Virus record (IMG/VR): IMGVR_UViG_2529293141_000023
Strand: one strand, 5' to 3'
Length of the DNA: 19,068 nucleotides
Source of the DNA: a virus
Taxonomy: Duplodnaviria > Heunggongvirae > Uroviricota > Caudoviricetes
Each line of letters starts with the position of its first letter. The first letter of the stretch is position 1. Positions 15,601 to 18,600 of this stretch are shown piece by piece. A program made the position numbers.

Positions 15601-18600
15601 AAAAGACGCGGAAGGTTTTAAGCATGAGTCACCTCCTGACGGATACGGGCGACAAAAATAAGATGTGCGTGCGGCAGCTGGGCGCGTGCTTCGTGCTCAG
15701 TGGCAGCGGTAACGGTGAATATTGCAATGCTGTCTGTCAGGCACTGCATAAAGCGCTAGGTGAATTTATTCAGGTTGTGCGAGTCCCGCCCTTGCGGGTG
15801 TGTGATATGATTTCTCATAGCTGCCTCGATACTCTTGCTATCGTTGGTGGTCAGAGGCTGCGAAAGGACGGCAATCCTTTTCAGCCTCGTTTGCATTGAG
15901 TGATAAACACTCAACTGGATTCCAGTATAATCACCAAGTGGAATCCACTTCAAGCGTTTTGTTTTGGTCTTTTTCGTGTATACTGGATTCCAGTAATCAC
16001 AAAGGGAAGCAGAAATGGAAAGAGACCATATCAATAACAAATCACAGAAATTACAGGCTCGCGCCCCGCATGAAGTTGTTGAGGCTATGGAGCAAGTAAA
16101 AGAAACAGGCGAGAGCACTGCGCAATTTATCGTTACAGCCATGCGAGGCGAGATCAAACGCCGCCAGCGCCGCAAGGCCAAAGAATCAGAATAATCACTA
16201 TCAGCGCCGTGGTGTGAGGTACTACGGCGCATTGCTTTACAGGGCAGCAGCATGAACAAAAAGTACCAATCCATTACAGATATTTTTGCCGAACAACGAA
16301 GACAGCTTTTGCACCGCATACTTGAGCGCCAACTGGAACTGAAACGCGCTAAAGAGATATCAGAACCCGAAGAGTTAACGCCTCTTCCCGGAGTGAAAAA
16401 ACACCCACAAAAACGATTTGCCCTTGAAGATTTTGTCGAGAAATACCCACGGCGGTTAAAAGCCACTAAAAACCGACCGCCTGGCTGATAGCCTTGTCCA
16501 CCAGCTACACTCATGGCATAGTTGGTGATGCGCTTGATTTCCTTTATCTCCACTGGCGACCCTTTCGTGGTCGCCTTTGTTTTGCCTGCCATTCCTGCAT
16601 CATGCAAATATTCGCGCCGTACAGAGCCACCAGCGCGATAATTTGATAAAACCTCCTCTAAGTATTGCTTAACGTGTTTCATACGCTCAGCGGCGAAATG
16701 GCTCACGATATGGCGCATGTAATCAAACTGATCGCTATTCAGCAGAGCAAACTTATGTTCACGCTCTCCGTGTTGATTGGTTTTTAATCGCTCCGTTTGA
16801 AACGGAAGGATACCCAGTTCACGCAATCCGGTTTTGTGCTTCTGAATAAGCGAATAAAGGCTTTTGTGCTTTATGCCGATGCGTTCAGCAAACAGGCGGG
16901 AATCAATACGCGACTCTGCTTTGTGGCGAATCAATATATCGTTCTGGCTGATTTCAGGCTGAACGAAGCCCTGCCCCTGTACGGGCACATTCGGACGTTT
17001 CATTGAAAACTCCTGCTATCGAATCAGGTTTAGTGCTGGGGGAGAATATCCCCCTCCCAAAAGATTATTACGCGGCGTTGTTGCGAGAAGCATCAATACG
17101 CTGGTTAATCCATTCGTCGACTTCACTTTCAATAAAAGCCACGGAGCGGGAACCAATTTTTACCGGTTTAGGGAAACGCCCCAGGCTGATCAGGCGATAA
17201 ATCCATGCGCGACCGTAACCAGTACGGCGCATAACCTCAGAAAGACGGATGAATGAATTGTTATTAGCCATTTATCAATCTCCTTAATGTTGACGCGAAA
17301 ATCCCCTCCTGTGGCTTAGCAAGAGTTTTATTTGCGTCAAATTACGAACACGACAAAAACCACAACATGAAAACATGTTGTGGTATTGCATAAGATAAAT
17401 TCAGATTGTTTGGTTGGTGGTTGGTATGCTCCAGCAAGGTAGAGCTATTCCCGCTTTTCGGCGGGGTCACACGATTAGGCGTGACGTCCAGTAGTTTTAA
17501 AGAGCGCCCTTTTTCAGGGCATGGTGGGCAGGCAAGAGAGCAATTGCGCTTTGTCAGCGCTCCGCAGCCTCATTGGTGAATCATTACATGCATTGTAAAG
17601 GTGCATGTATCCCTATTCTTTCCTGCATCAGGAAAGCACCAAAGGCTGTTAAAGAGCATCCAGCTTTTCAGCTGCGTAGAAGACTCCATCTTCGTTGTTA
17701 CAAGGAGCGCCGTCCATACATGATGGGGTAACTGCGTGAAAAACCATCTGTAAGGATATTACCTGTAGCTTTCCGTGTACGTTAGTATACATCTGTATAC
17801 TTGTCCAGTCGTTTTTATGCACATACACCAAACTTGCCGTGCACCACGTTACCGCCCTGTTCCAGTGAGTCCATATAGTCGGCGTACCACTGGAGCATCT
17901 CCCGCCGTCCGTCCAGGTATTGCGCGTGATTGTATGTGCCACGGATCGAGTTTTTATCGACGTGCGCCAGCTGCGTTTCTATCCACGCGGAGTTATAACC
18001 CTGCTCATGCAAAATCGTACTCATGGTATGCCGGAACCCATGACCAGTAACGCGCCCTGCATAGCCAATACGACGAATAAGCACGTTCATAGCCATTTCA
18101 CTCATCGGCTTACTGTGCTGTATTCGACCAGGGAAAATAAACGGATACTGCCCCGTCATGTGTTTTAACTGTTCCAGAATAGCGATCGCCTGTTCTGAAA
18201 GTGGCACGCAATGAGGACGGCGCATTTTCATTCGTTCTTTCGGCACTTCCCACAGACGATTATCAAAATCAATCTCCTGCCACTCTGCCTGCCGTAATTC
18301 ACCTGGGCGAAGTCCTGTAAGAATCAACAATCGCATACCCAGCTTGACGATCTGGCTTCCGGTGTACGTATTAAAAACGCGGAAAAATTCCGGTAGCTCA
18401 TCAACTTTCAGATACGCGTAATGCTCTTTTTTGTGTGGTGCAAATGCGCTTGCCAGATCAGGAGCGGGGTTATATTCAGCGCGTCCGGTAATTATTGCGT
18501 ACCGGAACACTTCGCCACATCGCTGGCGAACCTTACGCAATTTTTCAGTTGCGCCACGGTCATTAAGACGGGATAGAACCGCGAGCAATTCCATCGGCTT

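Follow-up and report, generated by a model that had tools for sequence, protein, structure and literature searches.

Lambdoid nut elements in the alpA leader suggest that an Escherichia coli phage satellite senses the N protein of its helpers

The way in which helper phages activate Gram-negative PICIs has been an open question since these islands were first described. AlpA acts as their master activator (PMC6092414; PMC11773190). Induction of alpA is helper-dependent and SOS-independent, with the inducer 'under study' in 2018 (PMC6092414) and left unnamed in the 2025 paper on EcCIMP1 (PMC11773190). Here, the question is raised by the 543-bp spacer (17272-17814) that separates int from alpA in an E. 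coli phage satellite; it was addressed in a window of 19 kb, i.e., the whole stretch of DNA analysed.

The upstream neighbour of the spacer is int, a tyrosine integrase gene (17815..19068, minus strand; Pfam Arm-DNA-bind_3, Phage_int_M and Phage_integrase), and downstream lies alpA (17068..17271, minus strand), encoding a protein of 67 aa (Pfam Phage_AlpA, E = 1.7e-20). As AlpA-controlled Gram-negative PICIs we counted small islands with int, alpA and a primase-replicase gene co-oriented beside a tRNA att site and without a structural phage module. The island of the window belongs to this class, with int, alpA and a DUF927 primase gene all on the minus strand; islands identical to it are ~12.5 kb long and located at tRNA-Gly, which the annotated integrase adjoins. 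A Pfam and protein check of the island revealed no recognisable N protein gene. Rfam gave zero matches in the window at the gathering threshold and only noise at E ≤ 10 (AgvB, E = 4.3), and the matches in the sister locus L003 at E ≤ 10 were noise as well (enterovirus elements). An antisense immunity RNA resembling P1 C4 or P4 CI, to be recognised by an Rfam C4 match or by complementary repeats of the seqA/seqB/seqC type, had been a candidate, since in relatives alpA is followed by icd- and ant-like genes; it was rejected because Rfam returned noise, with no C4 or CI match even at E ≤ 10.

On the minus strand, a promoter-like site, an array of nut elements, a C-rich stretch and a terminator precede alpA in this order, all facing it. 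This is the position expected of nut sites, with a promoter upstream and terminators downstream, both of which are predictions here. The best sigma-70-like match on the alpA strand of the spacer, TGGACA-17 nt-TAACGT (17807..17779), comes right after the stop codon of int (17817..17815) and some 500 nt before alpA. This candidate leader promoter is weak (8/12) and is conserved in both glyU and thrW islands; at the homologous position, EcCIMP1 has TGGACA-17-TAAAGT (9/12). The C-rich, G-poor, rut-like stretch (17368..17442, minus strand) contains 28-30% C and 5-10% G, with a C/G ratio of 3.0-5.7 in 60-nt windows, and is unpaired in the predicted fold; it may confer Rho dependence.

The perfect 10-bp inverted repeat reported in the first-pass annotation (CCACAACATG-AAAA-CATGTTGTGG on the plus strand, 17360-17383), with its T-run on the minus strand (TTTTTGTCG), was confirmed and extends to 11 pairs (17359/17384). 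Read in the sense of alpA it forms the hairpin ACCACAACAUG-UUUU-CAUGUUGUGGU followed by UUUUUGU (17352..17384), which was listed by a terminator scan. The 11-bp stem (5 GC pairs) with its 4-nt loop has a folding energy of -18.8 kcal/mol including flanks, and chance alone would yield a perfect inverted repeat of 10 bp and a 4-nt loop an estimated ~0.003 times in 543 bp. A stable stem-loop with a U-tract directly behind it on the transcribed strand predicts an intrinsic terminator at 17384..17352. All 11 pairs are kept in six distinct leaders, with one compensatory pair (C-G to U-A, in a diverged island) and one A-U to G-U change; in thrW islands, the U-tract after the hairpin is weaker (CUUUGG). 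The proposal that this repeat insulates alpA from int read-through held as far as its terminator-like character in the int-to-alpA direction is concerned. Its passive role did not, because the hairpins upstream are phage boxB sequences accompanied by boxA, which makes the terminator more likely a target of N-dependent antitermination than an insulator. The fold of the leader RNA as a whole scored z = -4.9; all 174 pair cells are kept across six distinct leaders, with two compensatory changes, and its G-U pairs can form only in RNA of the alpA sense.

The first pass had also suggested that this region probably takes in the induction signal of the helper, a general idea in line with the evidence, and that a TTGACGC/GCGTCAA pair flanks the likely alpA promoter and may serve as regulator-binding half-sites. 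The two motifs are indeed present on the plus strand at 17290-17296 (TTGACGC) and 17334-17340 (GCGTCAA). Read on the minus strand, the TTGACGC at 17334..17340 is a -35-like hexamer without a usable -10, and its inverted partner GCGTCAA (17290..17296) lies 6 nt upstream of the alpA Shine-Dalgarno sequence AAGGAG (17285..17280, minus strand). No sigma-70-like promoter was found between the sites, the best one being that at 17807..17779. The motif occurs at chance frequency (TTGACGCAA with at most one mismatch: 4 in the window versus 6.1 expected), and alpA homologues in other genera lack the pair in their upstream regions, as seen in the 24 Enterobacterales AlpA loci scanned. According to published reports, AlpA activates the promoter region of its own gene (PMC6092414; PMC11773190), for which reason an AlpA site near alpA is expected; GCGTCAA at 17290..17296 is a candidate for this autoregulation. 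The reported self-activation, the conservation of both arms in sister thrW islands and the real and conserved terminator-like hairpin are what speaks for a model with a passive insulator, a proximal alpA promoter between the half-sites and a DNA-binding regulator. Yet neither lineage offers an acceptable -10 after TTGACG, the motif is unremarkable in frequency and missing elsewhere, and the nut array would be left unexplained, so that we regard this model as improbable. An RNA-level signal is more likely than DNA-binding regulators at these sites.

Judged from its sequence, the main content of the spacer is lambdoid nut elements, which had been overlooked. As boxB we accepted a short GC-rich stem with a lambda (GAAAA/GAAGA) or P22 (GACAA) loop, and as boxA the motif (C/T)GCTCTT(T)A if it preceded boxB by ~8-10 nt in the same transcript; identities were set by direct reading of the lambda, P22 and Kapi1 records. 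The array spans 17693..17450 of the minus strand and thus has the orientation of int and alpA. Just ahead of it lies a degenerate boxA-like copy, CGCTCCTTGTAACAAC (17694..17709), the direct-repeat partner (family D2) of the boxA at 17506..17494; its counterpart in thrW islands is CGCTCTTTTA(T/A)AAC, preceded by GCCCTGGAGAAGGGC, which is one mismatch away from the lambda nutL boxB. The boxB-like hairpin CAGCU-GAAA-AGCUG (17661..17674), with a purine-rich GAAA loop, is located 2 nt before the boxA TGCTCTTTAACAG (17646..17658); in sister leaders, the hairpin is replaced as a module by CGCTGACAAAGCG (a P22-type boxB core) or CGCTGCTGAAAAGCGG. This boxA contains the exact core GCTCTTTAA and is 13/13 identical to the Kapi1 nutR boxA. 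It is followed after 9 nt by the hairpin CUUUCCUG-AUG-CAGGAAAG (17618..17636), without a counterpart in IMG/VR or GenBank phages. Repeat and fold analysis revealed a further hairpin, UACAUGCA-(9 nt)-UGCAUGUA (17585..17609), for which the scan of lambdoid loci and BLAST against GenBank phages gave no counterpart.

Two elements of the array are exact phage boxB sequences. The P22-type boxB GCGCUGACAAAGCGC (17546..17560) matches the P22 nutL boxB (NC_002371) at 15/15 positions and is followed by the degenerate boxA-like TGCTCTCTTGCC (17531..17542); in L003, where the repeat unit has another copy, that copy is canonical (TGCTCTTTAACAT). The lambda-type boxB GCCCUGAAAAAGGGC (GCCCT-GAAAA-AGGGC, 17506..17520) is 15/15 identical to the lambda nutR boxB ('Nutr', NC_001416), and its last C is the first C of the boxA CGCTCTTTAAAAC (17494..17506), again with the exact GCTCTTTAA core; the P22 nutL boxA, for comparison, is CGCTCTTTAAC. 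Both 15/15 copies have the GC-rich stem and GNRA-like purine pentaloop of nut-site boxBs. The phi21-like boxB candidate GUCACGC-CUAAUC-GUGUGAC (17466..17485), with a 7-bp stem, begins 8 nt after this boxA; it was found in all 18 distinct leaders, its pairing surviving G-U/G-C changes. The array ends with CCCGC-CGAAAA-GCGGG (17450..17465), which shows a compensatory C-G to U-A change in thrW islands. Two GC-rich hairpins given in the first pass at ~17444..17459 and ~17504..17520 are thus real, lying at 17465..17450 and 17520..17506; they had been left anonymous, and whereas the latter is the exact lambda boxB, the former only loosely resembles the P22 nutR boxB (CCGCCGACAACGCGG).

Are these matches specific? 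Exact GCTCTTTAA cores occur twice in the 19-kb window, both on the minus strand and both in the spacer. The lambda-type and P22-type 15-mers are each unique in the window, where ~4e-5 exact copies of each would be expected by chance (estimate). Both 15-mers proved to be specific markers of nut sites in IMG/VR: of 124 matches of the lambda-type 15-mer, 92 have a boxA 8-10 nt upstream, and the P22-type 15-mer stands in a P22-type or Stx-phage nutL context in 94 of 119; together with the following AAT, the latter is identical to Stx-phage nutL over 18/18 nt. Exact-pattern scans of IMG/VR with the phi21-like hairpin, the 17636..17618 hairpin and the L003 hairpin GCGGGATGGTTCGTCCCGC retrieved the island family only, and five further hairpins had zero counterparts in 237 lambdoid loci with 1-2 mismatches allowed. 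BLAST of the spacer or its parts against GenBank phages gave nothing or noise (Riemerella and Gordonia phages) and is uninformative for the array because the elements are too short.

The order of the elements is mixed. The canonical arrangement of boxA, 8-9 nt and hairpin is present at 17506..17466 and 17658..17618. Ahead of the lambda-type and P22-type boxBs, boxA is degenerate or absent; for the lambda type, a degenerate boxA precedes at 10-14 nt and a good one follows immediately, which is the order of rrn leaders, not of lambda. A boxA or boxA-like motif lies within 0-3 nt after each of these two boxBs, being canonical after the lambda type only, and in the sister leader L005 a boxA is located 8 nt ahead of the P22-type boxB. 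Conceivably, the leader could work independently of N, as in rrn operons, with boxA recruiting NusB/NusE/SuhB for the protection of a long untranslated leader against Rho, the boxBs being structural spacers or vestiges and the helper being sensed elsewhere (promoter, AlpA). The hairpin-then-boxA order with 0-3 nt spacing would fit, as would boxA motifs of the high-affinity GCTCTTTAA type; NusB:NusE prefers the rrnG BoxA, binding it about ten-fold more tightly than the lambda nut BoxA (PMC2800207). The leader is also long, untranslated and equipped with a C-rich stretch. However, this explanation accounts neither for the 15/15 lambda and P22 boxBs nor for a 45-nt Stx nutL copy and the swapping of boxB types (see below). 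Moreover, an rrn-type complex is not expected to override an intrinsic terminator, and we consider rrn-like action improbable.

Comparison of sister leaders revealed how the array varies. It is kept in 292 of 5426 E. coli genomes. Five length classes cover the 18 distinct leaders, all assembled from a single set of modules in which one fixed position holds different boxB types. Over 17696..17497, islands with 72% identity in int and 78% in alpA share 96-100% identity, a near-identity that could reflect recent transfer and not selection. The sister leader L004 contains 45/45 nt of Stx-phage nutL, including an extra upstream stem-loop, GATTCAAATATGAATC, and boxB; the window lost this stem-loop by a ~110-bp deletion between two copies of the repeat GAGCAATTGCGCTTTGTCAGCGC. 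Phages sharing the 45-nt nutL of L004 encode Stx1/Stx2-phage N (protein sequence MTRRTQFKGNSRSRRRERLK...).

The Stx-phage identity demonstrates DNA exchange with phages, as would be expected if the array consisted of non-functional recombination scars from lambdoid prophages. A small gene on the plus strand is another conceivable explanation of the spacer: the PGAP annotation of L003 includes a hypothetical protein of 129 aa, and that of EcCIMP1 lists EcCIMP1_002. Scars are at odds with the presence of nut pieces only, without flanking phage genes, from at least three phage classes in one orientation, and with the retention of the array in so many E. coli genomes. As to the gene, the window has it in two pieces, TTG-start ORFs of 57 and 52 aa, and most genomes carry no annotation for it; the plus-strand ORFs of the spacer have no Pfam family and no conservation, and overexpression of EcCIMP1_002 produced no UvrB-like phenotype. 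We regard scars or a gene as highly improbable.

An AlpA-based search of 185,579 species genomes yielded 80 loci, 24 of them in Enterobacterales. None of these 24 had boxA or GAAAA-loop hairpins upstream of alpA, which indicates that the array is specific to the E. coli glyU/thrW islands. The leader of EcCICFT073, the model island induced by lambda and phi80, is unrelated to that of the window, has no lambda boxB and folds no better than shuffled sequences (z = -0.8). A 14/15 lambda-boxB-like match in EcCICFT073 was judged coincidental, lying inside int with a stem mismatch and no boxA. Because its leader is completely different, a nut mechanism is not general for Gram-negative PICIs.

Experimental evidence on helper dependence comes from EcCIMP1, for which helper-driven induction, excision and packaging have been demonstrated (PMC11773190). 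Its alpA is preceded by the leader family of the window, and its AlpA, of the same family as that of the window, is identical to the proteins of L003, L005 and L006. An EcCIMP1 alpA reporter (-449..+50), which covers the predicted promoter, the array and the terminator, was induced only upon induction of the helper Kapi1, and this induction persisted when alpA was deleted (PMC11773190). Both the N encoded by Kapi1 and its nut sites are of the phi21 type, the latter consisting of boxA, 9 nt, a 6-7-bp stem and a CUAACC loop. The island leaders likewise have boxA, 8-9 nt, a 6-7-bp stem and a hexaloop starting with CUAA; unlike in the phage, the loop is CUAAUC or CUAAUA and the stem is unrelated. 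Neither boxB of Kapi1 occurs as an exact copy in EcCIMP1, which has only this hairpin of the same architecture (CUAAUA versus CUAACC). With 5/6 loop positions matching in the window and 4/6 in EcCIMP1, the hairpin is a resemblance and not an identity, and a candidate site for phi21-type N.

Could the array instead be a decoy? Once transcribed, it might titrate helper N and/or NusB/NusE, leading to interference or superinfection immunity without any switching of alpA. The genuine nut-element sequences would support this equally, several boxB types would widen the range of such a sponge, and competition of boxA transcripts for Nus factors is established lambda biology. EcCIMP1 also confers superinfection immunity against Kapi1 without a recognisable defence system (PMC11773190). 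A single-copy, weakly promoted leader would, however, be a poor sponge before island replication; Kapi1 titres on induction are not lowered by EcCIMP1, and the constant placement of the array upstream of a terminator and of the one known helper-induced gene would go unexplained. A decoy is, on balance, unlikely.

Because exact boxB hairpins and boxA stand just before a terminator, we propose that detection of the helper's N protein is probably what turns on the master regulator of the satellite; with moderate confidence, N is taken to drive antitermination through the leader into alpA. The spacer would be transcribed, from the weak promoter just after int, by read-through from int, or both, into an untranslated leader of ~430-500 nt in the sense of int and alpA, in which a lambda-type boxB, a P22/Stx-type boxB and the phi21-like hairpin would be interleaved with boxA motifs for NusB/NusE. 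Next in the leader would come the rut-like stretch and the intrinsic terminator, and without a helper transcription would halt ahead of alpA. Upon induction of, or infection by, a lambdoid helper, N, the earliest gene product, would bind its cognate boxB on the nascent leader and, together with Nus factors, render RNA polymerase termination-resistant, so that it would read into alpA and perhaps transcribe the downstream operon as well. AlpA would then amplify its own expression and set off island excision and replication. The analysis shows the identity, orientation, order and conservation of the elements and their pairing at the RNA level, and the helper dependence of the alpA reporter of a sister island is published; that the promoter is active, that transcription terminates, and that N binds and acts as an antiterminator at the leader are predictions. 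Which helpers can induce the island would depend on how many boxB modules its leader carries and of which types. We give an even chance to the further idea that the leader is a multiplexed RNA sensor of recombining boxB/boxA cassettes from lambda, P22/Stx, phi21-like and further types. Such an array would let one satellite read the N of several helper classes into transcription of its master activator, the helper range being encoded in, and evolving by, gain and loss of 30-110-nt nut modules.

With lambda nutR/nutL and P22 nutL the leader shares the exact boxBs and the canonical boxA cores and, as at lambda tR1, its elements lie between a (predicted) promoter and terminators and are followed by a C-rich rut-like stretch. 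Unlike in lambda and P22, the sites belong to a satellite without a recognisable N, several specificity classes are combined in one leader, boxA and boxB are interleaved in a hairpin-then-boxA order (0-3 nt), and the regulated gene is the satellite activator alpA and not phage early genes. Of the Stx-phage (H-19B/933W-type) nutL, L004 has the full 45 nt and the window only the 18 nt without the upstream stem-loop. Like the rrn leader (boxB-boxA-boxC) and boxA-protected non-coding transcripts, the island leader has a high-affinity-type boxA after a hairpin in a long untranslated RNA; unlike there, the hairpins are phage boxB copies and an intrinsic terminator follows. Activation is tied to an early or late helper function in other satellites as well (SaPI Stl derepression by phage proteins, P4 transactivation with CI RNA immunity, HE-PICIs). 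Helper-embedded PICIs obtain helper late transcription in cis (PMC10111431) and likewise depend on helper-driven transcription entering the satellite. Different from SaPIs, P4 and HE-PICIs, the signal proposed here is a trans-acting phage antiterminator read by the satellite leader RNA, with no repressor involved.

No link of PICIs, alpA or EcCICFT073 with boxB, nut sites, antitermination or N protein was found in the open-access literature, and a description elsewhere is possible. If true, this would be the first described helper-sensing mechanism of a Gram-negative PICI and the first satellite to hijack phage processive antitermination as its induction signal. Confirmation would explain immediate induction, because N is the first phage product, and would make helper specificity and range readable from sequence alone. 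It would also show that phage antitermination signals can be captured as modular sensors, helper classes would become predictable for the ~5% of E. coli genomes with the leader, including STEC with Stx phages, and parts would be gained from which to engineer PICI 'drones' and phage biosensors.

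The right end of the window is a small integrative island whose genes run in the order of Gram-negative phage-inducible chromosomal islands (PICIs): int, alpA, Rha/Ant/Icd-like genes, primase, SSB, ProQ/FinO, PerC. On its minus strand lie int (17815..19068), alpA (17068..17271; Pfam Phage_AlpA, E = 1.7e-20) and a DUF927 primase gene (12749..14887). Islands nearly identical to it, ~12.5 kb in length, adjoin tRNA-Gly on the chromosomes of several E. coli strains, of which many are STEC. AlpA serves as the master activator in Gram-negative PICIs, and its expression is turned on by the helper phage (PMC6092414; PMC11773190).

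Downstream of alpA, a 415-aa ORF (15756..17003, minus strand) looked chimeric: resemblance to the Rha family was limited to the first ~170 residues (Pfam Phage_pRha, E = 6e-5, below cutoff), and the low-complexity remainder, rich in Cys/Ser, is antisense to plausible plus-strand genes at 16015..16194 and 16252..16488, for which PGAP annotation of an island with 99.9% identity gives a YlcI/YnfO family protein and a hypothetical protein. The stretch 9146..9770 is rich in repeats (GCTCTTCAA occurs at 9223 and 9259), and overlapping Lys/Arg-rich ORFs that look spurious lie on either strand; the island may have its replication origin here.

Read in alpA sense (minus strand), the int-alpA spacer (17272..17814) follows the int stop codon (17817..17815); first comes its best predicted sigma-70-like site, TGGACA-17-TAACGT (17807..17779), scoring 8/12 as compared with 9/12 in EcCIMP1, a studied PICI with Kapi1 as helper. 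An array of N-utilisation (nut) sites (17709..17450), a C-rich, G-poor stretch (17442..17368; C/G 3-5.7), a predicted terminator hairpin with U-tract (17384..17352), the pair TTGACGC/GCGTCAA and a Shine-Dalgarno sequence ahead of alpA come next. The spacer of the candidate promoter is filled by a perfect palindrome, AGTATACA-TC-TGTATACT (17784..17801), for which an operator role is doubtful because it is imperfect in islands at thrW (AGTATACAGAGGTTTACT) and in EcCIMP1 (AGTGTACA...).

All features listed by the first-pass annotation were found in the spacer where it had placed them. Its 10-bp inverted repeat is real and lengthens to 11 pairs (17384..17359), with TTTTTGT next on the minus strand, and was reported by the terminator scan. 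TTGACGC and GCGTCAA, suggested there as possible regulator half-sites flanking a likely alpA promoter, are present, but at chance frequency (TTGACGCAA with at most one mismatch was found 4 times versus 6.1 expected), and no acceptable promoter was found near alpA in the spacer. Control of alpA by an operator at this pair is, in our estimation, improbable.

The leader RNA in alpA sense folds much better than shuffled controls (z = -4.9), its minimum-free-energy structure containing the lambda boxB, a phi21-like hairpin, a CGAAAA hairpin and the terminator. In four helices of six distinct leaders, all pair cells (174/174) were standard pairs, and of two compensatory changes one falls in the terminator; as two lineages were sampled, this covariation lends modest support. 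Several G-U pairs become A-C mismatches if read on the opposite strand. This evidence favours the RNA in alpA sense as the molecule that is structured.

In this sense, the spacer strings together short hairpins whose loops are rich in purines; after several of them comes the boxA GCTCTTTAA or a degenerate form. Comparison with actual phage records (lambda, P22, Kapi1) revealed 15/15 identity of the lambda nutR boxB (nutR: CGCTCTTACACATTCCA-GCCCTGAAAAAGGGC) with 17520..17506, 15/15 identity of the P22 nutL boxB (nutL: CGCTCTTTAAC-TTCGATGAT-GCGCTGACAAAGCGC) with 17560..17546 and 13/13 identity of the Kapi1 nutR boxA with TGCTCTTTAACAG at 17658..17646. Exact GCTCTTTAA occurs in the 19-kb window only at 17657..17649 and 17505..17497, both within the spacer and on its minus strand. 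A phi21-like unit at 17506..17466 (CGCTCTTTAAAAC, 8 nt, GUCACGC-CUAAUC-GUGUGAC) shares the architecture of phi21-type nut sites, which in Kapi1 consist of boxA, 9 nt and a 6-7-bp stem with CUAACC loop. In IMG/VR, boxA lay 8-10 nt upstream of the lambda-type 15-mer in 92 of 124 matches, and the P22-type 15-mer stood in nutL context in 94 of 119 (P22-type nutL, 62; Stx-phage nutL, 32). In the leader of L004, a sister island at glyU, 45/45 nt are common to the nutL region of phages with the N of Stx1a- and Stx2-converting phages, and 18/18 nt of this stretch are kept in the window. For several array hairpins, no phage partner was found in IMG/VR or among GenBank phages.

It is on balance probable that helper N drives antitermination through the leader into alpA; the sequence facts are observed, and activity of the promoter, termination, binding of N and read-through are our inference. 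Without a helper, leader transcripts would stop at the intrinsic terminator, or perhaps sooner, through Rho acting at the C-rich stretch. Once a helper is present, N would bind a cognate boxB and assemble with Nus factors on boxA, and the modified polymerase would read past the terminator into alpA, whereupon the published autoactivation of AlpA would lock the decision in. As nut, boxA and terminator elements are all textbook parts, the mechanism would be a known one at the molecular level. The boxA copies and the C-rich stretch might instead serve an rrn-like protection against Rho; set beside the boxB identities and the predicted intrinsic terminator, this seems to us improbable. Annotation of identical islands gives the island further products: an antiterminator of the Q family, a regulator of the PerC family and an RNA-binding protein with a ProQ/FinO domain (8256..8654, 10441..10740 and 10724..11029, minus strand); the Q-like antiterminator and the RNA chaperone may be functionally connected with the RNA-based leader.

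Weak points of helper-N antitermination are the lambda-type boxB without a good upstream boxA, the weak candidate promoter and the unrelated leader of EcCICFT073, which is inducible by lambda and phi80. Also counting against it are the lack of an exact Kapi1 boxB in EcCIMP1, of boxA ahead of AlpA homologues in other genera, and of a known phage partner for several array hairpins. The unusual boxA/boxB spacing is not fatal because N action does not strictly depend on boxA: in nutR, the BoxA69 mutant has little effect save NusB independence (PMC2800207).

EcCIMP1 occupies the tRNA-Thr site between proA and yagU, and shares its AlpA (WP_000035054.1) and leader family with three sister islands (L003, L005, L006). 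Its published alpA-lux reporter, covering -449..+50, was strongly induced upon Kapi1 induction and not by mitomycin C alone, and a delta-alpA strain still responded, though less (PMC11773190). By our mapping, the reporter takes in the array as well as the predicted promoter and terminator. Kapi1 encodes an N of phi21 type, gp020 (MVTIVWKESKGTAKSRYKARRAELIAERR), and its nut sites are phi21-type as well; the exact Kapi1 boxB is absent from EcCIMP1, and antitermination is not mentioned in the EcCIMP1 paper (PMC11773190). That the array is instead a decoy for N and Nus factors would fit its phage-like sites; given the constant position of the array just ahead of a terminator and of the helper-induced alpA, we regard it as unlikely.

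The leader was present in 292 of 5426 complete E. coli genomes. Compared with the window, L003 (at tRNA-Thr) is 72% identical in int and 78% in alpA, whereas the spacer is 88% identical overall and 96-100% over 17696..17497. Such spacer identity despite diverged genes points to a functional non-coding element, and conservation of the central leader (17497..17696) suggests recent horizontal exchange of a leader cassette between island families. Among the 36 collected loci, 18 different leaders were distinguished, which fall into five classes by length (389, 425/426, 540, 639 and 649 nt), all built from a single module kit. All 18 have the phi21-like unit together with one or more P22-type boxB cores; the exact lambda boxB was found in the 540- and 649-nt classes and the Stx nutL block in the 639- and 649-nt classes. 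One position alternates between CAGCTGAAAAGCTG, CGCTGACAAAGCG and CGCTGCTGAAAAGCGG; thrW leaders additionally carry GCCCTGGAGAAGGGC, one mismatch from the lambda nutL boxB, followed by boxA. Relative to the 649-nt class, the window has a ~110-bp deletion between two copies of a boxB+boxA repeat. That the array consists of recombination scars or a small ORF seems to us very improbable.

In L004 (95% identical to the window), the equivalent of the lambda-type boxB at 17520..17506 was lost by substitutions (GTACTGAAAAAAC), the adjoining boxA was retained and the 45-nt Stx-phage nutL block was gained, which looks like sensor-module turnover. Opposite-strand ORFs annotated inside the leader (L003 9167..9556, plus strand, hypothetical protein; EcCIMP1_002, 'UvrB-like', PMC11773190) overlap the nut array, lack conservation from one leader to another and probably reflect misannotation.

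Among 24 Enterobacterales loci scanned, no boxA was found upstream of AlpA homologues in other genera. The EcCICFT073 int-alpA spacer (L090 13161..13525, CFT073) contains a run of (G/A)AACAAC repeats, CACTCTTAAAAAT, which matches boxA plus spacer of lambda nutL at 12/13 positions, a 12-bp hairpin (loop GUAAAA) 8 nt further on and a C/A-rich stretch ahead of alpA; it may be a different nut-like design. Tandem ACCGCAA(C/T)TGCGGT palindromes 60-130 nt upstream of alpA homologues in Providencia and Escherichia ruysiae (L016, L051) look like a protein operator; therefore, alpA control appears to differ between island families.

No publication tying PICIs or alpA to nut sites, boxB or N antitermination was found in the open-access literature. 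Unlike in lambdoid phages, the nut array here belongs to a satellite encoding no recognisable N protein, combines several N specificities and guards the master activator alpA, so that the setting is new in these three respects.
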